Shown one piece after another: positions 2,191 to 30,033 of a DNA stretch of 64,000 nt (position 1 is its first letter; each line of letters begins with the position of its first letter). This DNA is from Staphylococcus phage SAC. Where the stretch lies: the sequence record OR234014.1. The stretch is one strand, 5' to 3'. Below the pieces are notes generated by a model. The model was not told where the DNA came from and ran no database searches. It saw nothing but the letters and a program-made list of their open reading frames with translations. The translations under genes and the position numbers were made by a program.

Positions 2191-2973
2191 TTAGTCATCA
2201 AAATAGAACTCATTAGACGAGTTGTTTTGTGTACTATTATAATCCGTTGGTATAAAAGTAGATGTGAAAGCTGTACCGTTGCCTTTGTCATATAATTCTT
2301 TTAGACGAGTAAGACCGATGTAACCAATACAGGCAGACTGAGAATAATGGTCGTCGCCTTTACGTTTAATAACTTGATAAAGTTCTCCTGTTTTTTCATC
2401 TTCTTCGTCCATGATTAGGACATTTTGCCAGTGCTTAAGATAAGTTTTTAATTCATCATCTACCTGTTGGTACATTCTTATACGTTTAGCTTTTAAATCT
2501 TGTATATATCGTTTATTATGCATTAATTTATCTACAGTTACTGTATTACTGTTTTCATTAAATTGTGCATATAATTGACCTGATGAACGTGGGCTAGACT
2601 TATAAGTACAACCAAATACTTTATCCTTACCAAAGAAATTAATTAATTTAAGTACGTTGTTACCCGAATCACCATTATCTGCAACAATAATATCAGGGTC
2701 ATATTTAGATATCTCTAATATTATAGCTTCTAAATCTGCTTCTACCATATCTGGTCTACTGTTTTTCTTAATAGAGAATAAACGTATTAAATCTACTTTA
2801 CCCTCCTCAGTCATACCATGTACAGTTACCCAGTGGAAGTTACCCCAGTCTATACCTACTGAAATAAATTTGTATTTATCTCTATTAAATAACTGTGTTT
2901 TTGCAATTTCTGACTTATTGTCAAAGATGTCTTCTGGTAAAACACGCATTTTAACATCTTCATAGGGCATCAA
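2191..2973 (-). CDS. terL: Terminase large subunit, exon 4 (C-terminal RNase-H-fold nuclease domain)
   Basis: ISVGIDWG...DIIVADNGDSG...motif pattern typical of the TerL nuclease domain; preceded by group I intron A. 5' boundary approximate (ATG at 2970 if the intron ends at the G of TTG). Confidence 0.7.
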   Translation of the reverse strand: MMPYEDVKMRVLPEDIFDNKSEIAKTQLFNRDKYKFISVGIDWGNFHWVTVHGMTEEGKVDLIRLFSIKKNSRPDMVEADLEAIILEISKYDPDIIVADNGDSGNNVLKLINFFGKDKVFGCTYKSSPRSSGQLYAQFNENSNTVTVDKLMHNKRYIQDLKAKRIRMYQQVDDELKTYLKHWQNVLIMDEEDEKTGELYQVIKRKGDDHYSQSACIGYIGLTRLKELYDKGNGTAFTSTFIPTDYNSTQNNSSNEFYFDD

Positions 2974-11092: not shown

Positions 11093-11593
11093 ATGTCAAA
11101 AAAAGATAAAAAACCATTATTAATAGCAGGTAACAATATTACTGCAAAAGCAAAAAGTGCTACATTTTGGACAGGTTTTGTACCTGTTTTAGCTACGTTT
11201 ATTGTTAGTGTATGTAGTTTACTAGGAATCAAAGGTGCAGAAGATATTGTAAACCAAGGCACTGCAATTGCAGGTGTAGTTATTAGTTTCTTGACTGGTT
11301 TAGGTGTTCTTGTAAGTCATGACACTAAAGGTATAGCGGATAGCCCTATTGTACAGGACTTTAACAAACCTAGAGATTATAATGACCCAGATAAAGCTTT
11401 AACATACAAGAGTGAAGCAATGAATAGTACCTCAGAGTTACCTCCTACAAAGATGCCGATGGCTCCTGAAGGAGTTAATAATGAAGACATAGATACAAGT
11501 CATGCAGAACCATTAGAACATGGTAAAGTAGAAAAAGACTTAGTGTCTGAATTAGATAAAGAAGATAACCCAAAAGAAGTAGGTGAACAGTAA
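11093..11593 (+). CDS. Holin (166 aa)
   Basis: Two TM helices (FWTGFVPVLATFIVSVCSLLGI; AIAGVVISFLTGLGVLV) plus a long acidic C-terminal tail; directly upstream of two lysins; TAATG stop-start overlap with the amidase gene. Confidence 0.7.
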   Translation: MSKKDKKPLLIAGNNITAKAKSATFWTGFVPVLATFIVSVCSLLGIKGAEDIVNQGTAIAGVVISFLTGLGVLVSHDTKGIADSPIVQDFNKPRDYNDPDKALTYKSEAMNSTSELPPTKMPMAPEGVNNEDIDTSHAEPLEHGKVEKDLVSELDKEDNPKEVGEQ

Positions 11594-12510
11594 TGATAGA
11601 AATTTGGAAAGGTGTAAGTGTTAGATATGATTTACTACCTATTGGAACAAGACGCACAGGTCAAGCTATGGCGGTTAAAAAACCCGTTTTTATTGTAGCT
11701 CATGATACAGGGAATATTAATACTACAGCTCAAAATAATGTAGACTATTACAAAAATACATATAACATTGATTGGGCTTCCACTGCATCCGCACATATCT
11801 TTGTAGATGATAAAGAAGCTATTATATGTGTTCCTACTACAGAAAAAGCTTGGCATGTGTTGTATAACACTCCTATGGATGACCTATGGTACGGAATTAA
11901 CGCTAATGATGGTGCTATTGGTGTAGAAATTTGTTACTTTAGTGATAAAGAACGTTCTAAAAAATCATTAGACAATGGAGCTCGTGTCTTAGCTTATTTA
12001 GCTGAATACTGGGGTGTTGATTACAAAACAAATATGCCAGGTCACCAAGACATCCAAAACGACAAACAAGACCCAGGTAACTTATTAGAAGCATGTGGAT
12101 TAGGTAGAAACACTAGTAACTTAGATAAGGAAGTAGCTAAGTATTACAAGAAAGTTATTAAGTCAGTAGATGTAAAGAAATCAGGTAATGCTGAGCCTAG
12201 AGTAAAAACACAATCTACTAAAACTATGTGGAGCTGGAAAGGTACTTTTTATCCAGATAGAGCTATTAAAGTTAGAAAATCTCCAGGACTTAAAGGCACT
12301 ATAGTAAATAGAGATTCATGGCTATACGATAAGGATGATTGGGTTGAATTTGACCAAGTTATTAAAGTAGACGGCTATTGGTGGATTCGATTTAAATATC
12401 CAAAACCAGGCTCTAGTAAAAATTATTTCTATTGTGCTGTATGTGAGATAACAGATAAACAAGAGCGTATTAAGAAAGAAAAATATTTTGGAAAAATAGA
12501 TTGGAAATAA
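11593..12510 (+). CDS. Endolysin 1: N-acetylmuramoyl-L-alanine amidase (Amidase_2/PGRP-type) plus SH3b_5 cell-wall-binding domain, 305 aa
   Basis: AHDTGN...H...C amidase core; C-terminus ...FDQVIKVDGYWWIRFKYP is an SH3b domain almost identical to that of the next gene. Confidence 0.75.
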   Translation: MIEIWKGVSVRYDLLPIGTRRTGQAMAVKKPVFIVAHDTGNINTTAQNNVDYYKNTYNIDWASTASAHIFVDDKEAIICVPTTEKAWHVLYNTPMDDLWYGINANDGAIGVEICYFSDKERSKKSLDNGARVLAYLAEYWGVDYKTNMPGHQDIQNDKQDPGNLLEACGLGRNTSNLDKEVAKYYKKVIKSVDVKKSGNAEPRVKTQSTKTMWSWKGTFYPDRAIKVRKSPGLKGTIVNRDSWLYDKDDWVEFDQVIKVDGYWWIRFKYPKPGSSKNYFYCAVCEITDKQERIKKEKYFGKIDWK

Positions 12511-12523
12511 GGAGTGAAAACTT

Positions 12524-13282
12524 TTGAAAGCATCGATGACTAGAAGTGAATTTGTTCGATTTTTAAAAAGTCTAGAAGGCAAAGCAATAGACTTTGATGG
12601 TTGGTATGGTCAGCAATGTTACGACTTAGCTAACTATGGATTTAACAAGCTCTTCCCAGGTTATTCTTTAGGTGGAGCAAGTGCATGTAACATTCCATGG
12701 GATAATAAAGCTATGTTAAAAGATAAAGCTAGAGTAGTAGAAAATACACTATCCTACATTCCTAAACCAGGCACTATGGTTATCTTTAATAATTCATACG
12801 GGGGCGGTCATGGTCATGTCGCATGGGTACTAAGTGCAAACCAAAACCAAATTATAGTAATTGAAAATAATTGGTTAGGTGGAGGTTGGACTTGGGGAGA
12901 TGCTCAAGGAGGCGGTGGCTGGGAGAAAGCTACCGTTAGAGCCCATGGTTACGACTTTCCTATGTGGTTTATAGAACCTAATTTCAAAGACGAGGTACAA
13001 ACAACTTGGAATTGGGGAGGTAAATTTACTGCTGATAGAACGATTAAGGTAAGACGCACACCAGGTTTAAGGGGTTCAATAGTAGGTGCTGAATCATTTA
13101 TTTATAGTGGTCAATATGTAAACTTTGACCAAGTTATTAAAGTAGACGGCTATTGGTGGATTAGATTTAAATATCCTACAAACCCGTCAGCTGGGAACTT
13201 CTATATGGCAGTATGTAAAATCACTGACAAGTGGGAACGTATGCTAAAAGAGAAGTATTGGGGTCGTATTAACTGGAAATAA
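12524..13282 (+). CDS. Endolysin 2: CHAP-domain peptidase plus SH3b_5 domain, 252 aa
   Basis: DGWYGQQCYDLANY (catalytic Cys) ... GGHGHVAWV (His) is a CHAP signature; duplicated SH3b C-terminus; TTG start with SD GGAG (alternative ATG at 12536). Confidence 0.75.
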   Translation: MKASMTRSEFVRFLKSLEGKAIDFDGWYGQQCYDLANYGFNKLFPGYSLGGASACNIPWDNKAMLKDKARVVENTLSYIPKPGTMVIFNNSYGGGHGHVAWVLSANQNQIIVIENNWLGGGWTWGDAQGGGGWEKATVRAHGYDFPMWFIEPNFKDEVQTTWNWGGKFTADRTIKVRRTPGLRGSIVGAESFIYSGQYVNFDQVIKVDGYWWIRFKYPTNPSAGNFYMAVCKITDKWERMLKEKYWGRINWK

Positions 13283-16555: not shown

Positions 16556-18856
16556 ATGAGACAACTAATACTAATGAGAGGTGCTCCAGGCTCAGGTAAA
16601 ACAACGTATATAAAAGAAAATGGATTAGAGGGATATTCTCTTAGCCCTGATGTCCTTAGAATACAATACAGCTCACCTGTATATGATATAGAAGGAAACC
16701 TTAGAATATCACAAGAAGAAGACAACAAGGTATGGGATTTATTATTTAGCATATTAGAAAAGCGTATGGAAAATGGAGAATTTACTGTAATAGATGCTAC
16801 ACATTCTACGGCTAAACTAATTAAAAAATATGAGAAGTTATCAAAAAAATACGGATATAGAGTATATGTGGTTAACATAGAAGCAGAGCTAGACACTCTT
16901 TTTGAACGTAATAATAATAGACAAGAACTAAAGAAAGTTCCTGTGGATGTTATTGAAAATATCTATGAGCGTTTAAAACATGAGAATATCCCAAGTTTTG
17001 CAAAAGAAGTAGATAAAAATGATTTGTTAAATACTATTAAGTGGGACAAAAATCTCATGAATACTGATTCATATGAGAAAATTCATGTAATTGGAGATGT
17101 CCATTCTTGTTTTACAGCCCTTCATTCTCTTTTCCCTACTGATTACATTATAGATAATCAAAATGAACTCTTCATATTTGTCGGAGATTATTTTGATAGA
17201 GGATTAGAATCGAAGCAAATGTTTGAGTATCTTGAGATTATTTATAAATTAAAAAACGTCATTCTATTAGAAGGAAATCATGAAAGACACCTTCGCAGAT
17301 ATACTCAGTTAGAAAAAGAAGACTATGATAATATTTGTTTAGCCTATAGTTGGGTAGATATTAGTGAAAAAGATTTTTATAAACAAGCTTTAAAAATATT
17401 TCATGCAAGAGGATTTATACCTACCTTGAAATCCTTCATAGAGAACGGAATAACTCAAAATAGAGTAAAGTCTATTCTTAGAAAGTTACAGCAGGTGGCT
17501 TACTTTAGTTTTAAAGGTCAAGACTACATTGTTAGTCATGGCGGAGTCCTTCCTGAAGTTCTTGATAATTTAAATAAGATTTCAACAAGTCAGCTTATTA
17601 ATGGAATCGGGGGATATGATTTTAATGTTGATGACCAATGGGAACATTCTAATACAATACAAATACATGGACATAGGAATTTATATAGAGAGCCTTTAGA
17701 TACTACTAAAAATTCAGTTAATTTAGAAGGTCGTGTAGAAAAAGGTGGTTGCTTAAGAGCTATAACGATAAATAAAAACAACAGTATTGAGAAGAATGAA
17801 GTAAAAAACACTATTTACGACCCTAAATTCCTTTTATCAAACAGACGGAACGATAGTATTGACAAAGACCTCACTCCTAATCAATACCTAGATATAGCCA
17901 GAAAAGAAAATAAAACCATCAAAACCAATCAACAATATAGAGATGTGTTCTCAGTTAACTTTACAAAAAGAGCTTTTTCTAAAAAGAAATGGAACCAATT
18001 AACAGTGAGTTCTAGAGGTCTTTATATTGATGAAGATAGAAACACAGTACTAGGAAGAGGATATAATAAGTTCTTTAATATCAATGAAGTAGAAGAAACC
18101 AAATTAGAGAATATGCCAGACACTATCCAATTCCCTTTAACTGGATATAAGAAAGAAAATGGATTTTTAGGACTAATGTTCTATGACCCGTTAGAAGGAA
18201 TTATATATGCAAGTAAATCTAAAACCCATTTAAGTGGACATGGAAATAAATATGCACTACTATTTAAAGAGTTAGTAGAAAAAACTTTAACCAAAAGACA
18301 AATACAAATACTAGCAACATTCCTTGAAAACCATTATATTGCTGACGATAGTTTTACCCTAGTGTTCGAGGTAGTTGATATCGAAGAAGACCCTCATATC
18401 ATAAAATATCGAAAAAGCGATATCTTCTTACTTGATATTATTTCAAATACGTTAAATATGAAAAAGAAAGATTATGATTATTTGAAATATGTTGCTGATG
18501 AAGTAGGATTACAACTAAAAGAAAAAGAGTTGGAGTTTGCTAGCTGGGAAGAATTTTATAAATGGTATAAGGATAATAATGGCTCTTATAATATATTGCA
18601 TGAAGGGTATGTATTTGAAGATTTGAAAGGATTTATGTTTAAATATAAGTCTGACTATTACAAAGACTGGAAATATATGAGAGATATAGCTTACTCCTTA
18701 TCACAAAGAAGAGATGTAAGACCTAAGCAATATATTTTAACAAGAAACCCTGAACTTAGAGATTTTTATTATTGGGCTAAAATGAAAGACTCAGAAGAAC
18801 TGAATAAAGATATCATCACACTAAAAGATGAGTTTGAAAAAGAAAAGGAGAAGTAG
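16556..18856 (+). CDS. Trifunctional polynucleotide kinase / calcineurin-like phosphatase / RNA ligase (Pnkp-like RNA repair enzyme), 766 aa
   Basis: N-terminus GAPGSGKT P-loop with the T4-Pnk-like layout (TVIDATH...GYRVYVV). Middle domain has metallophosphatase motifs GDVHS, GDYFDRG, GNHE and GH.H. C-terminal domain has nucleotidyltransferase motif I YKKENGF (K-x-N-G). Confidence 0.65.
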   Translation: MRQLILMRGAPGSGKTTYIKENGLEGYSLSPDVLRIQYSSPVYDIEGNLRISQEEDNKVWDLLFSILEKRMENGEFTVIDATHSTAKLIKKYEKLSKKYGYRVYVVNIEAELDTLFERNNNRQELKKVPVDVIENIYERLKHENIPSFAKEVDKNDLLNTIKWDKNLMNTDSYEKIHVIGDVHSCFTALHSLFPTDYIIDNQNELFIFVGDYFDRGLESKQMFEYLEIIYKLKNVILLEGNHERHLRRYTQLEKEDYDNICLAYSWVDISEKDFYKQALKIFHARGFIPTLKSFIENGITQNRVKSILRKLQQVAYFSFKGQDYIVSHGGVLPEVLDNLNKISTSQLINGIGGYDFNVDDQWEHSNTIQIHGHRNLYREPLDTTKNSVNLEGRVEKGGCLRAITINKNNSIEKNEVKNTIYDPKFLLSNRRNDSIDKDLTPNQYLDIARKENKTIKTNQQYRDVFSVNFTKRAFSKKKWNQLTVSSRGLYIDEDRNTVLGRGYNKFFNINEVEETKLENMPDTIQFPLTGYKKENGFLGLMFYDPLEGIIYASKSKTHLSGHGNKYALLFKELVEKTLTKRQIQILATFLENHYIADDSFTLVFEVVDIEEDPHIIKYRKSDIFLLDIISNTLNMKKKDYDYLKYVADEVGLQLKEKELEFASWEEFYKWYKDNNGSYNILHEGYVFEDLKGFMFKYKSDYYKDWKYMRDIAYSLSQRRDVRPKQYILTRNPELRDFYYWAKMKDSEELNKDIITLKDEFEKEKEK

Positions 18857-20606: not shown

Positions 20607-22646
20607 ATGTCAGTAGAATATAAAGAAACAGGATTAACGGAAGAAGAAATTCTTAAATTGTCTAAAGTAAATAGAAATAGTATATTTATAGGTGAAGAAA
20701 GAGTATATTTAAAAATAAATAATAAAAATATTGTAGATATTGGCTCTAAAGAATTATTAAGAGATATTAATAATACCTTTTGTTATTCTAGCGCTTTAAA
20801 TTTACTTTTATTTATAGCATTATGTGGAAATAAAAAACTTACTACGTTTAAGGGAGACCCATATAAAAAAGTACAAGAGTTAAGTAAAACAGTTACAGAT
20901 GTAAATACTGTATATAGTGAGTATATAGAAAGTGACGATAGGTCTGAATTTCCTTTATATAACAAAAGACACTATCGTAATAATATATACTGCCGTGCAA
21001 ACTATGAAAATGAACTAAAACAGTTTGACAATACGCAAAATAAGAATAGTAATAATTACCTTACAAAAAAAATAAGAGACTTAAAAAGACAAATAAATAC
21101 TACAACTAATGATATACTTGATGTATTATTAATGGGTGACTATAGTATATTTGGTATTAATATTGACCCTTATGCATTTGGTAAATCTTATGATAATAAC
21201 TACGAATACTACAATGAAGTTTTAAAAAATATAAAAATAGGGCTTAACAAATTAACACCTATAAAAGATAATAATACTCCGTTTTTAATTAAGACTTGTT
21301 ATTTAAAAGACATAAGTATAGTAACAACAGATTGGAGTATAGTAAACGGTGACTTTAATAATAAAAATGGAAATGTATACCTACACCTATCAAATACACT
21401 ACAACATAAAGAATTTAAATTTAATATGTATGAAGATGATTTTAATAAGGATAAACTAAAAAATAACATTACTTTACCTGTCCTTTTAAATATTATTTTA
21501 AGTAAATATGGAAAGGAAAATTTAGCTTTTAACATAATAATCCAAACACTAAAGAATAATGATTATTACTTAAATCTAAGTAGACTTAATGTAAAAAACT
21601 TTGATGTATACTCTATGATAGATAGACCTGATGGTTATCGCACAGTTAGTAAAGGTGAAAATGCTACTGATAATTTAAACAATCTGTTAAAATTAGTTGT
21701 GTCTAATATTGATAAAGTTTATAACAACGAAGATTGTGATATATTTAAAGAACACAAAGAGTTTCTAGTAATACCAAACAAAAATAAATGGAAATTACAT
21801 GAAGCTTTAAATTTAAGTAAACAAACATATAATAAGTTTATTACTCTTAGTAAAGAAGAGCAAGAAAATTACCTTAATATACTTCGAGTTATCATAAATA
21901 AATTTCCTAGTTTATATAATGAGTCTAACTTACACAAACTATTCGATGACGACTTTATAATGGTGACTAATTCATATTCAATAGGAAATGCTTTATCTTT
22001 TAAAGGTACTACGAAAGAAGTTCTTAACTTTTCATTTTCTGACTTTAGAAAAATGGTGAATTATATAAACTATGATGTCAGAAACAGACAACGTATACAT
22101 TCATACGCTGTTAATAATTTATATAGAGATTATATAGACTTTGCTTCAGACCTAGTACTTCTTGGATATAGAACTAAAGAAAGTATTAACTTAACACCAT
22201 ATTCTTTAAAACTAGAGCATGATATTGTTACTGATGAGTATTTAACAGTTAAAGATGAAGTCGATGACTTAAAGTTACAACAAAAATATGATAATAAATT
22301 AAATAATATCACAAATAAAGAATATAAGTTAAATGATGGCTCTAAAGTTAAATTTTTACCTGCGGATACTACTGAAAAATTAAAAAGAGAAGGTGAACAG
22401 CTATCTCATTGTGTCGGCAGTTATGCTTCGAATATTATAAATGACAGATGTTTAATATTACTAGCTAGAAAAGTTGACGATTTAGAAAAATCATGGTATA
22501 CTGTAGAAGTAAGGATAACAAAATATGGATATACGTTAGGTCAACAACAATCTTTAAAAAGTCATGAGTTACCTAAAGAATTAAAAGACGAATTAATAAA
22601 AGATATTAAAAATATAAATAAACAATTTAGTGAGGATGTTGCGTAA
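20607..22646 (+). CDS. Large protein (679 aa) with a PcfJ-like C-terminal domain
   Basis: C-terminus ...KLKREGEQLSHCVGSYASNIINDRCLILLAR... resembles the PcfJ-like (E..L.HCV..Y) signature; N-terminal 500 aa low-complexity N/K/Y-rich. Confidence 0.45.
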   Translation: MSVEYKETGLTEEEILKLSKVNRNSIFIGEERVYLKINNKNIVDIGSKELLRDINNTFCYSSALNLLLFIALCGNKKLTTFKGDPYKKVQELSKTVTDVNTVYSEYIESDDRSEFPLYNKRHYRNNIYCRANYENELKQFDNTQNKNSNNYLTKKIRDLKRQINTTTNDILDVLLMGDYSIFGINIDPYAFGKSYDNNYEYYNEVLKNIKIGLNKLTPIKDNNTPFLIKTCYLKDISIVTTDWSIVNGDFNNKNGNVYLHLSNTLQHKEFKFNMYEDDFNKDKLKNNITLPVLLNIILSKYGKENLAFNIIIQTLKNNDYYLNLSRLNVKNFDVYSMIDRPDGYRTVSKGENATDNLNNLLKLVVSNIDKVYNNEDCDIFKEHKEFLVIPNKNKWKLHEALNLSKQTYNKFITLSKEEQENYLNILRVIINKFPSLYNESNLHKLFDDDFIMVTNSYSIGNALSFKGTTKEVLNFSFSDFRKMVNYINYDVRNRQRIHSYAVNNLYRDYIDFASDLVLLGYRTKESINLTPYSLKLEHDIVTDEYLTVKDEVDDLKLQQKYDNKLNNITNKEYKLNDGSKVKFLPADTTEKLKREGEQLSHCVGSYASNIINDRCLILLARKVDDLEKSWYTVEVRITKYGYTLGQQQSLKSHELPKELKDELIKDIKNINKQFSEDVA

Positions 22647-23527: not shown

Positions 23528-23837
23528 AAAAAAGATACATAAATACTTTTGTTACCTATACTTTTCAGATTACTTACCATCAAAAGGTATAGTTGTTTTA
23601 AATCATAATGTTACCTCTCATGCTACGGAGAACGGAGTTAAAAATTATTACATAGGTAATATTCTAATAGATAACGCAGAAATAACAGTTGTTATAGACT
23701 TAACGGATTTACAAAAAGCAAGTAGTATGCAAAATATGTTAGAAATATTGAATAAAAATACAGAATCTTGTATCTTTAAAAGCAAAGAATTAACTACTGA
23801 GACGGTAAATACCTTCTTTAAAGGAGAAATTTTATGA
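23514..23837 (+). CDS. Hypothetical protein (~107 aa)
   Basis: ATG 23514 (MEEDKKK) preferred over the upstream ATG. Confidence 0.5.
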   Translation: MEEDKKKIHKYFCYLYFSDYLPSKGIVVLNHNVTSHATENGVKNYYIGNILIDNAEITVVIDLTDLQKASSMQNMLEILNKNTESCIFKSKELTTETVNTFFKGEIL

Positions 23838-23974
23838 AAAAATTAAATATATGTTTAACTATTATATCATTCTTTATCACATATAAAGTGTTAACAAAAA
23901 AGAAAAAGCATACACATGTCATTGTAGACTATTCAGTACAAGACCATATTCATCTAAATGATATCTGTAACTAA
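23834..23974 (+). CDS. Small membrane peptide (46 aa)
   Basis: MKKLNICLTIISFFITYKVLTKKKK...; SD AAGGAG; followed immediately by a terminator. Confidence 0.4.
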   Translation: MKKLNICLTIISFFITYKVLTKKKKHTHVIVDYSVQDHIHLNDICN

Positions 23975-23998
23975 AGGGCAATTTGCCCTTTTTTGTGT
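23975..23998 (+). terminator. Rho-independent terminator
   Basis: aagggcaa-tttgccctt plus TTTTTT. Confidence 0.7.
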
Positions 23999-24041
23999 TT
24001 TATGATATATTAACATTGACTAATAGTAAAGGAGATTTTCA

Positions 24042-27000
24042 ATGCCTCATTTAAAAGCATATGATAAATACGGTAATATATTGGCAATAGGTTACAATGT
24101 AGAGTTACATGAAGAAGTAGGGTCTGTAATCATACCTAACTTAGCTCCTCATACCCATTACCCTCAAGGTGAGTTCTATGTATCATGGGAAGCTGAAAAA
24201 TATGAAACCGATAAAGTAGTAGTTCCTGGTTTTACAACCCTAGAATCATCATTCAAAGAAATAACATTATATTTTAAAGACCATATACTTGTAAATGCTA
24301 AATCTGCTTATGATGTAGCAGTAGATAATGGTTTTGTCGGTTCTGAAGAAGAATGGGTTAAGTCTATTAAAGGAGAAAAAGGGGAGGAAGGGGAACAAGG
24401 TAAGCAAGGTTTAAGTGCTTATGAAGTAGCTGTAAATAACGGTTTTACAGGTTCAGCTACAGATTGGCTTAAAACAGGTAAAAGTCCTTATGTATACTCT
24501 AACGAGTATATAAAGCAAAAAGATGATACTTCGGATGTTCAAAGGTTAAGACGTGCTATTAAAGATACAAGTGAAGGTAATACCCTACACATTCCTTCTA
24601 GTGAATCACCTATTAAAATAGATGATACTTTGATAATAGATAAGAATATTAATATTGTATCTGATGCTAAGATTGTTTATAATGGTAGTAAGGATAAACC
24701 AGCTATTAAACTAGATAGTTTATCATATTCTAATGTTACAATTAAAGGTATTTATGATGATAGTTCTTATCCAACTTATGGTGGAGGCTATCATGGTTTT
24801 AAGAGTCAAAACTATATAGGACTAGAATTAGTTAACTGTAGAAATGTTAATACTAATATTAATGAAATTATTGGTTTTACAGTCGGTAATAAACATAAAG
24901 CTACTGGTGGTAAAGGTCATTGGTTTAATAATACTATTATTAATTTCTTTATTAATAATGAAACACATATAGAATTAAATACAGATGGTATAGGTTCTAA
25001 TGGTGAGCAATCTTGGATGAATAGTAATTACTTCTATAAATCAGCTTTTTCATATAGTGGCACTGAGTTTAATAAACACCCTAACACATACTATAACATC
25101 AAACAAACTCTAACAAATGCTAATACCTATGGAGGAAATAGCAATGTATTCGATTCACTTAAATTTGAAACTGCTTCCCCAACATCTGAAAATTATGTTA
25201 TGGTGTATCTTAAAAAAGCAGTAGGATTTATATTTAAGAATTACAGATTTGAATTTAATAACAAAGCTACCTTTGCTATTATAGATTTAGAAACACAAGA
25301 CATGACAAAATCTTATGTAACACATAGTAAAGATATTAAGTTTATTCCTGAATTTGTTTTAGGTAATGGACATAAACTAACGTTTACAAATATTAATACT
25401 GCTAAAATACCTAGAAGTAGTATTGCTAAAATAGTAGACGAATACAAAACAACATTATTGTATAAAAATAATGATTTTAGCAAAGACTATAGAAGATTAG
25501 GGGGTAACTATCACACAGTCAAAAATGTATTTAGAAAACCATTACAGTCAACTTCTCTGACAGATAAAGTATCTTATGACTATAGTACTACACCTAGTTT
25601 AGTAGATGATAAAGGACTACTTACCTTTACAGGCTCGTACCCTATGGCTTTATATGTTAATAATGTTAGTGTTGGTGACGAGCTAATTATTAACAAGTTA
25701 TCATTTATAGGTAATTCTAGTGGTATATTTATTAAATGTTTTGATAAAGACGGTAATATATTAGACAAAGTATCTAATAATTATGATACAATATTACTAG
25801 ATGGTTATTATAATGATAAATATAAAGCGTTCACTTTCAATAACGCCCAAAAAGATACTTTTACTGTTAATAGTGAAGATGTTAAGTCTATCGTTATTTT
25901 AATATCTGGAACTATGCAAGGTTTACTTGTAGGTTCAACTAATCCATCCAATATTATTAAGTCTTCAAACGATAGTAGCAAGAATAAAACTGATGTTTTT
26001 TATTCTCATGTTAAACCTTCTAGTGTTGAAGATTTTAAATATGATGAAAAAGTATACAACAATGGTACAACACAAGTATATGGTTGGGTACTAAAAGGTA
26101 ATGATTGGAAAGAACTAGGTAAAGACACTAATTCTAAGAGTAAAGTAATAGTTAATATAGAAGATTACCCAAGAATTAATGATGAAGATAATGACTATCC
26201 TAGATTCCAAAGAGCTTTAGATTATTTAACAAGTACTAAAGGTGGTACTCTTATAGTACCTAAAGGAGCAGAGGACTATTTATTCAAAACTAAGACACCT
26301 ACTGTACAAAACCCATCACGTGTAAAAGTAACAGGAAGTAATATACACATTAAAGGTGAAGGTAATCCTACATTTATTATGTCAGGAATCACTAAAAACT
26401 ATTTAGACTCTATAGATGATATTTCTTCTAGTGGTAGAGATATGTTTACAGGATTCTCATTTATCAACTGTGATAACATTCTTGTAGAAGGATTAACATT
26501 TAAAGGGGAATGGGATAGTAAAGGTGAATTTAGATATGCGTCACCTCGTTCTATTGGAGTAGCGTTTAAAGGAAGTAGAAACTGTAAAGCATATAATGTA
26601 CATGGCTATAATATCATGGGTAATGTTGTAAATGCAGTAAACACTATGCAAGCAGTAGATGGTGTTTATGGTTACTCAGACAACATTACTATAGATAGTT
26701 GCTCAGCTACACAATGTTTAGAGAATGGTTTTAACTTTATGGGTGGTACTAAAAATGGATATTATGTTAATAATATATCTACAGGAAATGGTTCAAGTGG
26801 ATTTGAATCAGGAACAGAAAATGTTATTATAAGTAATAATATACACACAAATAATAAGTACTCAGGTTTAAGTATATCTGGCACTAATTACACAATTACT
26901 AATAACGTAATTTATGGTAATAGTAATAAAGGAGAGTTAAGTAATAAACCATCTAATGGTATTGCTATTACAGGAGGTAGTAAAGGAATTATTAGTAACA

Positions 27001-27848
27001 ATAATGTATCAGGTAATGAGGGTTACGAGTTGTACCTTTATCCAGGAGTTAATAACATAGATATACAAAATAATGTATTAAAACAAGATACAACAAGTTT
27101 AAAAACAAGTATTATTTATGCCTCAGGAACAACTAGTAAACCTGTGTCAGAAATTAACTTTAAAAATAATACATTAAGAAGTACAAATACTGCTTTGGAT
27201 AAAGCTATGTTCTTAAATTTTGTTATGGATAGTACAATTACTAATAATGATATAAAAACAGATAAAGGTAATGATTCATTAAGTGTTCAAGGTTCTTGTA
27301 GTAATCTATTCGTATTAAATAACAATATGAATAAAAACTTAAGTATTTCTAGTAATGCATTTAATGTTATAAGTAAGGATAACATAGCTTATAATTTACC
27401 TAAAGTACTGAACGGTACTGCAATACCAACTACAGGGAGTTGGAGATTGGGAGATATTGTTGTTAATACTAGTAGAACCCTAACATCAGGTAGTCCTGAG
27501 AAATGGAGATGTACTAGCGATGGAGTTGCTACTAATATGAAGTGGACATCTAATACGGATTATACACAAGGTCAAATTGTTTATAATGGGAATTATGTAT
27601 ATAAAGCAGTAGCTTCAGGTACAAGTGGTGGAACACAACCTACTCATAATAACGGTGTTATATCAGATGGCTCTATACTGTGGGAATTTATATCCACAAA
27701 AGCTAATTTTGAAGTCATAAGCCAAATAGGTGTAACTGAAAGCATTAGTAATATACCTTTATACAAAGGTCAAATTGCTATAATAGGTTCATCTGTATAT
27801 GTAGCTAAAGGTACATCAAGCAATACTGATTGGATAATTTTAAATTAG
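24042..27848 (+). CDS. Giant fibre / receptor-binding-like protein (1268 aa): N-terminal FN3-like module, collagen-like Gly-X-Y run, right-handed parallel beta-helix (pectate-lyase-like) core, C-terminal beta-rich domain
   Basis: KGEKGEEGEQGKQG collagen triplets flanked by the fibre-repeat motif SAYDVAVDNGFVGSEEEWVKS / SAYEVAVNNGFTGSATDWLKT. Periodic N-x-ITNN, ISNN and GNSN beta-helix rungs (res 830-1020); strong SD AAAGGAGA. Confidence 0.6.
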   Translation: MPHLKAYDKYGNILAIGYNVELHEEVGSVIIPNLAPHTHYPQGEFYVSWEAEKYETDKVVVPGFTTLESSFKEITLYFKDHILVNAKSAYDVAVDNGFVGSEEEWVKSIKGEKGEEGEQGKQGLSAYEVAVNNGFTGSATDWLKTGKSPYVYSNEYIKQKDDTSDVQRLRRAIKDTSEGNTLHIPSSESPIKIDDTLIIDKNINIVSDAKIVYNGSKDKPAIKLDSLSYSNVTIKGIYDDSSYPTYGGGYHGFKSQNYIGLELVNCRNVNTNINEIIGFTVGNKHKATGGKGHWFNNTIINFFINNETHIELNTDGIGSNGEQSWMNSNYFYKSAFSYSGTEFNKHPNTYYNIKQTLTNANTYGGNSNVFDSLKFETASPTSENYVMVYLKKAVGFIFKNYRFEFNNKATFAIIDLETQDMTKSYVTHSKDIKFIPEFVLGNGHKLTFTNINTAKIPRSSIAKIVDEYKTTLLYKNNDFSKDYRRLGGNYHTVKNVFRKPLQSTSLTDKVSYDYSTTPSLVDDKGLLTFTGSYPMALYVNNVSVGDELIINKLSFIGNSSGIFIKCFDKDGNILDKVSNNYDTILLDGYYNDKYKAFTFNNAQKDTFTVNSEDVKSIVILISGTMQGLLVGSTNPSNIIKSSNDSSKNKTDVFYSHVKPSSVEDFKYDEKVYNNGTTQVYGWVLKGNDWKELGKDTNSKSKVIVNIEDYPRINDEDNDYPRFQRALDYLTSTKGGTLIVPKGAEDYLFKTKTPTVQNPSRVKVTGSNIHIKGEGNPTFIMSGITKNYLDSIDDISSSGRDMFTGFSFINCDNILVEGLTFKGEWDSKGEFRYASPRSIGVAFKGSRNCKAYNVHGYNIMGNVVNAVNTMQAVDGVYGYSDNITIDSCSATQCLENGFNFMGGTKNGYYVNNISTGNGSSGFESGTENVIISNNIHTNNKYSGLSISGTNYTITNNVIYGNSNKGELSNKPSNGIAITGGSKGIISNNNVSGNEGYELYLYPGVNNIDIQNNVLKQDTTSLKTSIIYASGTTSKPVSEINFKNNTLRSTNTALDKAMFLNFVMDSTITNNDIKTDKGNDSLSVQGSCSNLFVLNNNMNKNLSISSNAFNVISKDNIAYNLPKVLNGTAIPTTGSWRLGDIVVNTSRTLTSGSPEKWRCTSDGVATNMKWTSNTDYTQGQIVYNGNYVYKAVASGTSGGTQPTHNNGVISDGSILWEFISTKANFEVISQIGVTESISNIPLYKGQIAIIGSSVYVAKGTSSNTDWIILN

Positions 27849-27863
27849 TAAAAAGGGGATTTA

Positions 27864-28229
27864 ATGATGACAGAAGACAATTTATATTTATTTAAAGCAC
27901 ACGTGGACAAAGTAGTGGATGGGGATACTATACATGTAACTATTGACCACGGAATGAGAACATACTCTGAGCAAAGAATAAGATTACTAGGTGTCGACAC
28001 ACCAGAAAAGAAACAAAATAATTACCAAGAAGCTAAGGAATTTACAACAACTATGTTAGAAGGAAAAGATGTTTTAATTCAAACATACAAAGATGATTCT
28101 TTTGGTAGATATTTAGCTAAAGTGTTCTACAAAGAAAATAAAGAGTATAAAAATATTAGTGAAGAATTAATTAAAAAAGGATTACTAAAAGAAAAAAGTA
28201 AATGGAATAAAGAACTTGACAAACAATAA
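27864..28229 (+). CDS. Staphylococcal (micrococcal) nuclease family thermonuclease homologue (121 aa)
   Basis: VVDGDTIHVT...RIRLLGVDTPEK matches the SNase catalytic motifs (DGDT ... R.IG.DAPE). Confidence 0.75.
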   Translation: MMTEDNLYLFKAHVDKVVDGDTIHVTIDHGMRTYSEQRIRLLGVDTPEKKQNNYQEAKEFTTTMLEGKDVLIQTYKDDSFGRYLAKVFYKENKEYKNISEELIKKGLLKEKSKWNKELDKQ

Positions 28230-28243
28230 AATATATGCTATAT
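28215..28243 (+). promoter_or_regulatory. Promoter TTGACA-17-TATATT embedded in the 3' end of the nuclease gene
   Basis: Consensus hexamers; would start a transcript at about 28250. Confidence 0.5.
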
Positions 28244-28249
28244 TATTAT

Positions 28250-28510
28250 AGTAGTAGTTAACTAACGCCTCTTAACAATGCGAAACACAGTTAGCATTTT
28301 TTAACTTTATAATGAGAGTAACAGCCTAACTATATGGGTACTGTAAAATCATTATATTCTACCTATCTACCAAGCGTAGAAAAGGTCTACGGTAACGTTA
28401 TGACTCTATTTAGCGTTACTAGCAATCCTGAGTAATGGTATTGGCTAGTTGTAGCTACCTAGTCAAGGGGTTCGAGTCCCCTCTCAGGATTTTTTCCACA
28501 AGATACCTAC
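28250..28510 (+). ncRNA. Candidate ~260-nt ncRNA ending in a tRNA-like acceptor/T-arm minihelix
   Basis: Promoter-to-terminator unit with no ORF; relatively GC-rich; 3' part tcctgag...aggggTTCGAGTcccct-ctcagga-t has a perfect T-arm (GGTTCGAGTCC) and a 7-bp acceptor-like helix, but too few nucleotides for D and anticodon arms. Confidence 0.4.
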
Positions 28511-28511
28511 T

Positions 28512-28548
28512 AAAATATCTTACACCTACTTATTTTTAAAGTAGGTGT
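28512..28548 (+). terminator. Rho-independent terminator
   Basis: cacctactt-attttta-aagtaggtg plus TTTTTTT. Confidence 0.75.
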
Positions 28549-28555
28549 TTTTTTA

Positions 28556-28584
28556 TTGACTTCTATTTACTTATGTGTTATATT
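28556..28584 (+). promoter_or_regulatory. Promoter TTGACT-17-TATATT
   Basis: Consensus hexamers upstream of the MazG-like gene. Confidence 0.55.
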
Positions 28585-28617
28585 TACTATATACTAAAAA
28601 AAAAGGAATGATTATTA

Positions 28618-29403
28618 ATGACTAAAAAAATTAAAAATATTGAAATTGTTTTTGAAAACTTAGATAGTGCGGTATTAGAACCAGAAAATGTAGAGTTGAT
28701 ACTAGAAGGTATTAGTGAAGAAAAAACTATGATATATGGAAATAGTGAAGTAGATACAAGTAAATCAGCAAAAAAAGTTTCTATTGAGGTAAGTGGTATG
28801 AAGGATGAATACTTTGAAGAGTTTCATGGTTTCTTAGATGAGCCCTACAACATGACATTATATGATAGATTAAGTGGCAAAGATATTGTTTGTGTTTGTT
28901 TGAATTATGAGGATGGTACAGACGATACTGTATATGTACCTTATCCTGAGTATGGGCAGTATAATTATATGCAGAGAAATAAGTACGAAAAAGAAATAGA
29001 CACTTTATTTATTACAATAGAGGATAGAGAACAAGAAGAACATGTACCAAATGATGAAAAACCTAACTTTAATGAAGGTGAAACAGAAGACCGCACGCTA
29101 GATGGTTTAGTTAGTCAAGTAGAGGAATGGAGTAAAGATAAAGGATTGGACAATAACAATCCTGATAGACAAGCCCTTAAATTCTACGAAGAAGCAGGTG
29201 AAGTAGCATCGGCATTATCACGTGGTAACCTAGAAGCTCTTAAAGATGGTATTGGGGACACTGTAGTTACTTTAATTATTTTAGCTCAGCAACACGACAT
29301 GTCATTACAAGAGTGTTTAGAGTTTGCTTACGATGAAATTAAAGGTCGTAAAGGAAAAACAGTTAATGGTACCTTTATTAAAGAGGAAGATTTAAATGAG
29401 TGA
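28618..29403 (+). CDS. Protein with a C-terminal MazG-like nucleoside-triphosphate pyrophosphohydrolase domain (261 aa)
   Basis: ALKFYEEAGEVASA...DGIGDTVVTLIILA is the EE..E/D metal-binding helix pair of MazG/HisE-like NTP-PPases. Confidence 0.5.
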   Translation: MTKKIKNIEIVFENLDSAVLEPENVELILEGISEEKTMIYGNSEVDTSKSAKKVSIEVSGMKDEYFEEFHGFLDEPYNMTLYDRLSGKDIVCVCLNYEDGTDDTVYVPYPEYGQYNYMQRNKYEKEIDTLFITIEDREQEEHVPNDEKPNFNEGETEDRTLDGLVSQVEEWSKDKGLDNNNPDRQALKFYEEAGEVASALSRGNLEALKDGIGDTVVTLIILAQQHDMSLQECLEFAYDEIKGRKGKTVNGTFIKEEDLNE

Positions 29404-29620
29404 TAACTTTAGTCAATTTATAAGTAAAAAAAGCAATGAATTAAACAAAGCTACAGAAAAACAAAAAGATTTTATCTATAATCATATAGATTGTTTATAT
29501 GATGAGTCAACTTTTGATATAGAGTCATTAAGTAAAGATGAAGCTACTGAACTTATAAATGATATAACTATAGAGTTAAGCTGTTCAGATGATTTTCTTG
29601 ATTGGTATGATTATCAGTAA
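29396..29620 (+). CDS. Acidic small protein (74 aa)
   Basis: Overlapping start; followed by a terminator. Confidence 0.5.
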   Translation: MSDNFSQFISKKSNELNKATEKQKDFIYNHIDCLYDESTFDIESLSKDEATELINDITIELSCSDDFLDWYDYQ

Positions 29621-29628
29621 AGAATAAG

Positions 29629-29665
29629 CAGGTAAAGGCTTTCAAAACCTTTACCTGTTTTTTAT
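29629..29665 (+). terminator. Rho-independent terminator
   Basis: caggtaaagg-ctttcaaaa-cctttacctg plus TTTTTT. Confidence 0.75.
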
Positions 29666-29709
29666 ATGCTATATTATTAATGTATCATACAACAGAAAGG
29701 GATAACATT

Positions 29710-30033
29710 ATGTCTAAAAAATTAAAGGTCTACAACAAAGATGAACAGCTAATTTTAACTTCTGATGAAGTTACAGGTAGTTCTGTAAAAGTAACATTAA
29801 CAGATTTAAAACCTAATACTACTTATAATAAAGGTGATTTTAAAGTATCTTGGTTAGTAGATGGACAAGAATCTAATAAAACAGACGTGCCTAGTTTCAA
29901 AACATTAGAGAGTGAAAAAGAAGCTGTAGCTCAGCCTGTCATTGTAAACACACTAGATATGGGTACTGATGGATACACAATAAGTAATGAACCGCCTAAA
30001 AATACTAATAAGATATGGCTTAAATCAGAATAA
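29710..30033 (+). CDS. Small FN3/Ig-like domain protein (~107 aa), paralogous to the N-terminal module of the 1268-aa fibre-like protein
   Basis: VTLTDLKPNTTYNKGDFKVSWLVDGQESNKTDVPSFKTLES aligns with VIIPNLAPHTHYPQGEFYVSWEAEKYETDKVVVPGFTTLES of the 24042 ORF; SD AAGGGA. Confidence 0.55.
   Translation: MSKKLKVYNKDEQLILTSDEVTGSSVKVTLTDLKPNTTYNKGDFKVSWLVDGQESNKTDVPSFKTLESEKEAVAQPVIVNTLDMGTDGYTISNEPPKNTNKIWLKSE

Follow-up and report, generated by a model that had tools for sequence, protein, structure and literature searches.

A dispensable gene of staphylococcal Silviaviruses encodes a predicted accessory fibre with two beta-helix bodies in tandem

The 64,000-nucleotide stretch of DNA from Staphylococcus phage SAC analysed here (record OR234014.1; hereafter the window) carries, away from its structural genes, an open reading frame (ORF) for a protein of 1268 residues, which an original prediction made from the sequence alone took to be a beta-helix, collagen-repeat fibre. 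We conclude that this protein has three parts, an N-terminal module (N-module, residues 1-147) followed by two bodies, A (148-693) and B (704-1268), and that it is probably an optional accessory fibre, attached to the virion, that binds and perhaps cleaves wall glycopolymers. The ORF contains no internal stops, and its length does not vary among the full-length Silviavirus records (Stau2, SSP49, MR003, SA11 and others); neither a signal peptide nor a transmembrane segment was found in the protein. The 6-kb region in which it lies is 99.2-99.7% identical to the corresponding DNA of SSP49, LSA2308, StAP1, MR003 and Stau2 (Silviavirus, Twortvirinae, Herelleviridae).

Searches with the whole protein, with residues 160-1268 and with residues 701-1268, together with pairwise BLAST, returned three non-overlapping sets of relatives. 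Body A is 36-53% identical to proteins P0003, P0004, P0115, P0116 and P0117, and in all five the alignment ends no more than 2-3 residues from the relative's own C-terminus. Body B is 32-49% identical to P0118-P0130, in alignments that also reach their C-termini. Because the homologues terminate at the boundaries of A and B, these bodies are self-contained C-terminal units. The tandem of A and B is found only in Silviavirus and in phage Twort, whose protein has 1380 residues and is 66% identical. A survey of 50,697 phage records places body A in Silviavirus, Twort and phage 184DA only, and body B, distant partial matches apart, in Silviavirus and Twort only. An exhaustive HMMER search gave 36 cluster representatives for body B at E < 1e-30, and showed that its last ~100 residues make up an end module widespread among tail fibres; this stretch also aligns to the tailspike of cyanophage Pam1 (7eea).

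A single beta-helix had been proposed for residues 200-1268. The right-handed beta-helix itself is borne out by Pfam and by AlphaFold2 (AF2) models, but it is divided between two separate tailspike-type bodies, each with C-terminal beta-domains of its own. In Pfam, Beta_helix (PF13229) matches residues 925-1048 with 36.5 bits against a cut-off of 25.9, and NosD (PF05048) residues 851-1021 with 24.8 bits against 23.6; body A has no Pfam match, and the fold is thus recognised by Pfam in the C-terminal half only. The AF2 model of residues 691-1268, built from a 16-sequence alignment, has a mean predicted local distance difference test score (pLDDT) of 91.9 and shows a long regular beta-helix followed by beta-domains. 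For residues 1-712 the mean is 68, with a confident sandwich at residues 1-78 (~80), a beta-helix at 150-450 (75-95), a further beta-sandwich at 525-635 (~80) and disorder between 451 and 520.

Foldseek matched both bodies to beta-helix structures with a probability of 1.00. For body B the matches in the PDB, at E values of 1e-8 to 1e-11, are the Pam1 tailspike, the AlgE4 and AlgE6 mannuronan epimerases, GH110 galactosidases, the Dettilon and HK620 tailspikes, the lyase RbmB and the adhesin PfbA. The best PDB matches of body A are tailspike depolymerases acting on capsule or O-antigen (Fri1 gp49, Depo32, K2-2 TSP, Sf6 and CBA120), with TM-scores that are low owing to the multi-domain model; in a viral library its neighbours are pectate-lyase-superfamily proteins, a phi29-type pre-neck appendage (Bacillus phage DLc1) and RaK2 fibres. 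The tailspike- or depolymerase-like fold that had been suspected is supported for both bodies.

The N-module begins with a domain (residues 1-78, 'MPHLKAYDK...') that is 65-85% identical in other Twortvirinae fibres. Its description as Ig- or fibronectin type III (FN3)-like holds at the level of the AF2 model, a beta-sandwich with a pLDDT of ~80, whereas the sequence match to FN3 stays under threshold: a small paralogue encoded downstream scores 19.8 bits against the PF00041 cut-off of 25, and the N-domain of the large protein gives no hit. A profile of the domain compared with the PDB finds fibronectin at E ~0.008, on an NLxPxTxY motif, and structural superposition on the viral library places it on the 105-residue 'major tail protein' of phage ISP with an rmsd of 1.4 over 75 columns. 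WD40 hits of the N-module profile were set aside as a short-repeat artefact. An FN3-type domain is also present within the major tail protein of temperate staphylococcal siphoviruses (48% identity), and this is the source of the misleading label 'major tail protein'; a related domain forms part of a 188-residue 'tail protein' encoded last in the tail module of SEP9-type siphoviruses. Judged by the siphovirus major tail proteins, the domain is of a type displayed on virions.

The domain is followed by a stalk in which two copies of a repeat, SAY(D/E)VAVxNGFxGS..W, stand one on each side of a G-X-Y run. This repeat recurs in relatives with longer collagen-like runs and in many tail-fibre proteins. 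The run itself comprises five triplets (residues 111-125), not the seven first counted, and Pfam Collagen (PF01391) does not match it. Long G-X-Y runs are present in the relatives P0003, P0007 and P0019, implying that these form trimers. Several database labels proved to be of little help. 'Autotransporter adhesin', used in several GenBank records, was rejected, as the protein lacks a hydrophobic N-terminus and Pfam finds in it no autotransporter, YadA or Hia domain; the label mirrors beta-helix and collagen-like composition only. No functional weight was given to 'major tail protein', 'minor head protein' or 'hydrolase domain protein', which were assigned automatically or by transitive annotation.

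Residues 1 to ~110-147 recur, with 57-85% identity, at the N-termini of otherwise unrelated proteins encoded on other ~140-kb contigs of staphylococcal myophages. The heads attached to this module include a phosphodiester glycosidase (NAGPA; P0008, the 864-residue protein of Mammaliicoccus phage PMS3, and the 697-residue gp017 of MCE-2014, annotated 'tail fiber'), an SGNH hydrolase (P0016), a polysaccharide deacetylase (CE4; P0030 and P0031), an M14 peptidase (P0033), a fibre with a long collagen run and an S74 chaperone (P0007), and other beta-helices (P0019 and P0021). In every case with visible context the gene lies in the non-structural arm. Comparison of synteny in related phages thus finds orthologues and family members in that same arm, with no simple rearrangement from a baseplate module. 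The suggestion that the gene is accessory or exchangeable is strongly supported, since it is present or absent among near-identical Silviaviruses and its N-module bears unrelated heads elsewhere. The 'MPHLKAYDK' type of domain is shared by Silviavirus and Kayvirus fibres at 65-85% identity, as compared with ~25% DNA similarity between the genera overall, and the adaptor therefore seems to have been exchanged horizontally. In Twort ORF001 (L002 6205-6450) the FN3 domain is nearer to the type of the small free-standing paralogue (KVSWL...VPSF).

Do bodies A and B cleave glycans, or only hold them? A virion-borne adhesin that binds without cutting, with two lectin-like beta-helices for two different glycans and a correspondingly broader reversible adsorption, seems to us quite improbable. 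It would fit the presence of non-enzymatic beta-helix adhesins such as PfbA among the structural neighbours, the lack of a recognised catalytic signature, and the widely shared end module that forms the C-terminal domain of body B. The nearest structural matches, however, are mostly active depolymerases, epimerases and lyases; sister fibres bear bona fide enzyme domains; and body B has two invariant acidic residues, Glu894 and Glu922, on adjacent rungs. These glutamates are conserved throughout a family whose members are only 32-49% identical, a pattern suggestive of catalytic residues.

The company that A and B keep in other proteins bears on where they act. P0117 joins BppU_N to body A and P0118 joins BppU_N to body B, so that both bodies serve as the distal ends of baseplate proteins; BppU_N (PF10651) was absent from the 1268-residue protein in a Pfam scan. 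The gene for P0118 closes the tail module of a staphylococcal-type siphophage, in the order Tal, RBD propeller, BppU, CHAP/glucosaminidase, P0118, holin, endolysin. P0117 is an orphan gene on a Peribacillus frigoritolerans chromosome (L006 8001-10244), among genes for an MgsA-like AAA ATPase, Rrf2, a cysteine desulfurase-type aminotransferase and MnmA; the 8 kb flanking it in each direction show no prophage. It has the look of a phage baseplate protein that was orphaned or domesticated, and with this housekeeping neighbourhood it was rejected as a tail-module context for body A.

Two members of the N-module family have been detected in purified Kayvirus particles using liquid chromatography coupled to tandem mass spectrometry. 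Stab22 was the sample of lowest depth, with 9 peptides each for sheath and for portal; its g028c (64.8 kDa), named 'putative tail fiber protein', was represented by 6 peptides and 18.6% coverage. In Stab21, g038c was represented by 16 peptides and 45% coverage (PMC7077315). According to GenBank, g028c has 570 residues (64.9 kDa), begins MPHLKAYDKEGN and is 72% identical to the N-module of the window over 109 residues, and g038c has 616 residues, with an FN3-like N-domain that is 40% identical over 67 residues followed by the SGNH domain.

The original prediction had left two options, a fibre carried by the virion or an enzyme freely released, and these two proteins make the first the better supported. 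The second would be a soluble, non-virion depolymerase or receptor-destroying enzyme, freed at lysis, that strips wall polymers or biofilm matrix and so aids the spread of progeny or avoids dead-end adsorption. We regard it as unlikely, even though the gene lies in the lysis-proximal, non-structural arm on the endolysin strand, nearly all the alternative heads of the family are envelope-acting enzymes, and dispensability in the laboratory would suit an environmental role. In Kayvirus the same arm also encodes Tgl, described in PMC7150955 as a lytic enzyme that acts outside the virion. A free enzyme would have no obvious use for a conserved adaptor and a collagen-like or helical stalk, however, and in purified particles the two family members reach levels comparable to those of portal or terminase. 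The occurrence of both bodies as C-termini of BppU baseplate proteins and the lack of a signal peptide also speak against it.

The full-length gene is present in 21 records found with a 5-kb query. A Romulus-type deletion characterises Romulus, Remus, KSAP7/11, phiRNIID, SapYZU04/15, SAP6, EW15/20/22/27/41, PM56/93 and two StAP1 records. Romulus matches the window up to position 23986 and again from 27753, with 97% identity on each side, and the survival of the last ~85-96 nucleotides of the ORF identifies the event as a deletion and not as an insertion in the other lineage. The breakpoints lie at an imperfect microhomology, AAAGGnCAA(A)TTGC, over which the two matches overlap, with its left copy in the upstream terminator and its right copy near codon 1240. 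In an intermediate allele (HM01, qdsa001, SAP_01 and DELF3) residues 1-48 are fused in frame to residues 1035-1223, the protein ends prematurely and conserved Trp and Arg positions are substituted; V1SA19 has a larger deletion. There are at least four deletion alleles, several of them independent. The mini-ORF of the intermediate allele lies at L011 1144-1851 in SAP_01, and the remnant in DELF3 has diverged to 75% amino-acid identity, implying persistence over some time; it might keep a function as a small C-terminal lectin-like protein. The name StAP1 covers both states, with the full 1268-residue gene in PV172160.1 and the Romulus-type deletion in KX532239.1 and OQ025229.1, reflecting either distinct isolates or loss of the gene in propagation.

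The phages that lack the gene are known broad-host-range S. aureus phages, and the fibre is thus not required for infection. It is not a primary or essential determinant of host range, as Romulus and Remus infect S. aureus without it. The gene could in principle be an evolutionary relic or selfish cargo that has no present role in infection and is being lost. Repeated deletion, and the truncated and degenerating allele with its premature stop and its Trp and Arg substitutions, would fit such a history, which we nevertheless think very improbable given that the 3.8-kb ORF is intact in at least 21 genomes and in Twort (66% amino-acid identity), with ratios of non-synonymous to synonymous substitution (dN/dS) of 0.12-0.23. 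The lower value is for the comparison with CIFT_MFB_MRSA28 (61.5 synonymous against 30.5 non-synonymous differences) and the higher for Twort, for which the N-module gives 0.35, body A 0.22 and body B 0.21. The intact gene is under purifying selection.

The placing of the gene outside the structural module is confirmed, the large-terminase exon being on the opposite strand and the endolysins on the strand of the fibre gene. The distance to the terminase, given earlier as 15 kb, is about 16-21 kb, and the terminase belongs to the other arm. In the window, which has a G+C content of ~29% and strand switches at ~8 kb and ~34 kb, the fibre ORF occupies the lysis-proximal 'reverse' arm of Silviavirus-type genomes, ~11 kb downstream of the endolysins. 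A promoter region and terminator of its own had been attributed to the gene; a promoter-like site and a terminator do lie upstream, but there is no terminator before the next gene, the nearest being at 28522-28548. Kayvirus late promoters, as defined by experiment, have a long -10 box, TGTTATATTA, and no -35 box (PMC7698491). The sequence TGATATATTA, 30 nucleotides upstream of the ORF and directly after the terminator, matches this box at 9 of 10 positions. One-mismatch copies of the motif are not enriched in the window (44 observed, 39.5 expected), and the argument for a late promoter was dropped because the motif occurs at chance frequency and the site has a -35 box matching at four of six positions (TTGCCC).

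How might such a fibre work? We suggest that the N-module, with its FN3-like sandwich and its stalk of helical and collagen-like repeats, is an adaptor and stalk shared among Twortvirinae, which in Silviavirus and Twort carries two complete tailspike-type beta-helix bodies in series. N-module and stalk would trimerise and dock on a conserved site of the virion, and bodies A and B would bind, and possibly cleave, two wall-associated glycopolymers, for example wall teichoic acid, poly-N-acetylglucosamine (PNAG) or capsule. The fibre could then provide a faster or broader reversible first contact, or clear envelope or matrix locally, before the baseplate receptor-binding proteins of the structural module engage. 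Not being needed for plaques on S. aureus, the fibre is easily lost.

Several points weigh against a virion-attached, glycan-cleaving fibre. Five G-X-Y triplets are insufficient to form a collagen helix by themselves, and the FN3-like domain decorates siphovirus tail proteins but is no known anchor. The detection of g028c and g038c supports a location on the virion, yet it is suggestive rather than proof, the particle proteomes of the Stab phages and of fRuSau02 being permissive (46-100 proteins, polymerases and NrdE among them). Presence in particles would moreover be extrapolated from these Kayvirus family members to the 1268-residue protein itself, and the Romulus/Remus virion proteome is uninformative because both phages lack the gene. 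Early host-sigma-type promoters dominate the arm, and that of the fibre gene is not confidently assignable to the late class. Finally, Pfam and profile searches recognised in the protein no catalytic motif of a defined CAZy family, and beta-helix spikes may be binding-only.

A more general form of the proposal is that the Twortvirinae possess a plug-in display, in which one FN3-and-stalk adaptor on a conserved virion site presents envelope-acting heads that can be exchanged for one another (glycosidase, esterase, deacetylase, peptidase and beta-helix depolymerases). The Silviavirus and Twort form would then be a single-chain, double-headed depolymerase for two staphylococcal glycopolymers, and having or lacking it would account for the differing host ranges or biofilm activities of therapeutic Silviaviruses. 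We put this forward tentatively and think it rather unlikely. In a study of the phage 812 neck a neck-whisker density was matched to no gene product, and within the plug-in display it is, speculatively, a candidate for the docking site.

Features of the window in and around the fibre gene
Feature	Position	Strand	Details
Large-terminase exon	2191-2973	-	with homing endonuclease
Two endolysins	11593-13282	+	same strand as the fibre ORF
Pnkp/RNA-ligase	16556-18856	+	same arm as the fibre ORF
PcfJ-like protein	20607-22646	+	same arm as the fibre ORF
Intrinsic terminator	23973-23991	+	closes the upstream operon; right half is the left Romulus-type breakpoint
Promoter-like site	23983-24012	+	TTGCCC, 17-nt spacer, TATATT, upstream TG; -10 region TGATATATTA at 24003-24012
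Segment missing in the Romulus-type deletion	23987-27752		3.77 kb; 3' remnant of the ORF kept
Fibre coding sequence	24042-27848	+	1268 residues, 140 kDa; Stau2 ORF156, SA11 I7DMU2
FN3/Ig-like beta-sandwich, head of the N-module	24042-24275	+	residues 1-78; AF2 pLDDT ~80
Stalk/linker, two fibre repeats	24294-24482	+	residues 85-147; helix pairs in AF2
G-X-Y run	24372-24416	+	GEK GEE GEQ GKQ GLS; residues 111-125, 5 triplets
Body A	24483-26120	+	residues 148-693; beta-helix ~150-450, then beta-sandwich C-terminal domains
Body B	26151-27845	+	residues 704-1268; beta-helix, then C-terminal domain of widespread tail-fibre type
SNase promoter	27775-27803	+	TTGCTA, 17-nt spacer, TATGTA; inside the 3' end of the fibre ORF; the promoter annotated in the Romulus record
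Staphylococcal-nuclease (SNase) homologue	27864-28229	+	121 residues; Pfam SNase (PF00565) 57.2 bits against 21
Free-standing FN3-like protein	29710-30033	+	107 residues; phrog_4178, Romulus_152, Stau2 ORF152 'major tail protein'

The gene that follows encodes a staphylococcal-nuclease homologue and does begin, as had been noted, immediately downstream, 15 nucleotides past the fibre stop codon. Its Ca2+-binding and catalytic residues Asp21, Arg35, Asp40, Thr41, Glu43 and Arg87 are intact, and its DGDT, R-LLGVDTPE and GR motifs align to thermonuclease. The term 'secreted-type' fits the family name only, for the protein has no signal peptide, beginning MMTEDNLYLFKAHVDK and passing directly into the OB fold. 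A functional pairing with the fibre is not upheld either: the gene has its own promoter, is kept in every deletion phage and has homologues in Sepunaviruses that lack the fibre gene, and in Twort an additional ORF separates the two, so that adjacency is no sign of a functional pair. An intracellular role, in nucleotide scavenging or degradation of host DNA, is more likely.

The small FN3-like protein had been seen as a duplicate of the N-terminal domain of the fibre. The two are indeed homologous (BLASTP 38% over 66 residues, E 7e-6; reciprocal PHROG hits), but the small protein is not a recent duplicate. It occurs in 461 staphylococcal phage records, including Romulus, and in essentially all Twortvirinae, also those without the large gene; it is therefore an old paralogue and not the product of a local duplication. 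The Kayvirus orthologue is called 'structural' in fRuSau02, where it fits RS_033 (105 residues) in a 78-protein table, and no protein of ~11.8 kDa appears in the stringent 22-protein proteome of ISP. As a proven virion component it was rejected, the fRuSau02 proteome being permissive.

Between the nuclease gene and the MazG-like gene downstream of it (28216-28548, + strand) lie ~300 intergenic nucleotides with no ORF. A near-consensus promoter at 28216-28244 (TTGACA, a 17-nt spacer and TATATT with TG) and the terminator already mentioned bracket a stretch that may be a phage small RNA (sRNA). Positions 28303-28362 match the S. aureus sRNA TEG147 below threshold, with 36 bits where the gathering score is 56, and GGGGTTCGAGTCCCC, at ~28445, resembles the T-arm of a tRNA. 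The element was rejected as a tRNA: ARAGORN was negative, Rfam gave nothing at gathering thresholds and there was no convincing alignment to the tRNA-Met of Twort or Stab21. In both of those phages a tRNA-Met adjoins the fibre gene.

Other genes of the arm deserve brief mention. The Pnkp/RNA-ligase protein is a 766-residue fusion of polynucleotide kinase/phosphatase-like and RNA-ligase modules (phrog_8238), likely a tRNA-repair enzyme; in this arm of Stau2 only a 120-residue 'RNA ligase' is annotated, and the region varies among close relatives. The 679-residue PcfJ-like protein (Pfam PcfJ, E 3.5e-18) is intact in the window, Stau2 and Romulus and is annotated as two coding sequences in StAP1 PV172160 (20607-22019 and 22053-22646). 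Directly upstream of the fibre gene, a 46-residue ORF with a hydrophobic N-terminus (23834-23974, + strand; Romulus_156) is called 'RinB-like transcriptional activator' in some records; it stops at the terminator serving as the left breakpoint of the deletion. The product of 28618-29403 (+ strand) has a C-terminal MazG-type nucleotide pyrophosphohydrolase domain, slightly above Pfam thresholds and with strong PHROG MazG matches, and its common label 'DNA binding protein / ArpR' is probably wrong.

Silviaviruses such as Romulus, Remus, Stau2, MR003, SA11 and their relatives are leading candidates for S. aureus therapy and are usually deemed equivalent, yet they differ by a 140-kDa protein that, to our knowledge, nobody has characterised. 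Papers dealing with the evolution of Romulus, with the epsilon2-phages, KSAP7/11, VL10, the CIFT phages and Evangelion, and with the neck and baseplate of phage 812 make no mention of the gene. Should the fibre bind or break down teichoic acid, PNAG or capsule, carrying it could alter how fast a phage adsorbs, how it acts on biofilms or encapsulated strains, and how immunogenic it is, and the ease with which it is lost by deletion would then matter for the production of stocks. The conserved N-module with its swappable heads offers a natural scaffold for the engineering of staphylococcal phages, and the family is a source of candidate anti-staphylococcal wall-polymer enzymes. We know of hardly any beta-helix depolymerases among S. 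aureus phages.

By Pfam and by fold the protein is a member of the beta-helix superfamily, and it is neither a BppU protein, nor a Pfam collagen-repeat protein, nor an autotransporter adhesin. Both bodies share their fold with the beta-helix tailspikes (P22/Sf6/HK620, Fri1 gp49, Depo32, K2-2 TSP and Pam1), and the domain order of N-terminal adaptor, beta-helix and C-terminal beta-domains is common to the protein and these tailspikes. The fibre differs from these in having two complete bodies in tandem on one chain, in an N-terminus made of an FN3-like and fibre-repeat module in place of a known particle-binding domain, in a gene that is dispensable and lies outside the tail module, and in its Gram-positive host; its activity, moreover, is only predicted.

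Another counterpart is the pre-neck appendage gp12 of phi29, a spike with a beta-helix that reportedly acts on teichoic acid. Like the proposed fibre, it belongs to a Firmicute phage, has the beta-helix fold and comes in addition to the tail tip. In contrast, gp12 is a fixed structural component and the fibre is optional, Pfam detects in the fibre no peptidase-G2 or autochaperone domain, and there is no homology at the level of sequence. Optional appendages are familiar from lambda Stf, the L-shaped fibre pb1 of T5 and the Ig-like decorations of the T4 Hoc type, which speed or broaden reversible adsorption to glycans and are readily lost in stocks. These show the same pattern of presence and absence among near-identical genomes, although they have no kinship of sequence or fold with the fibre beyond the Ig-like theme, and the part of the fibre in adsorption is itself a proposal.

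The BppU proteins of staphylococcal, lactococcal and Bacillus siphophages provide the link to baseplates, as the C-terminal portions of P0117 and P0118 correspond to bodies A and B with 36-49% identity; in the fibre the place of BppU_N is taken by the Twortvirinae FN3-type N-module. Also close are the particle-associated Kayvirus proteins Stab22 g028c, Stab21 g038c (the 'lipase acylhydrolase domain protein' of JD007) and MCE-2014 gp017 ('tail fiber' or 'beta-N-acetylhexosaminidase'). Their N-module is of the same kind as that of the fibre or related to it, and they share its genome arm and its patchy distribution, but their heads are unrelated and single where the fibre has two. Compared with these systems, and within the literature searched, novelty lies in the tandem of two complete spike bodies on a single chain, in the family of FN3-type adaptors with swappable enzymatic heads encoded outside the structural module across Twortvirinae, and in the presence/absence polymorphism among therapeutic Silviaviruses.

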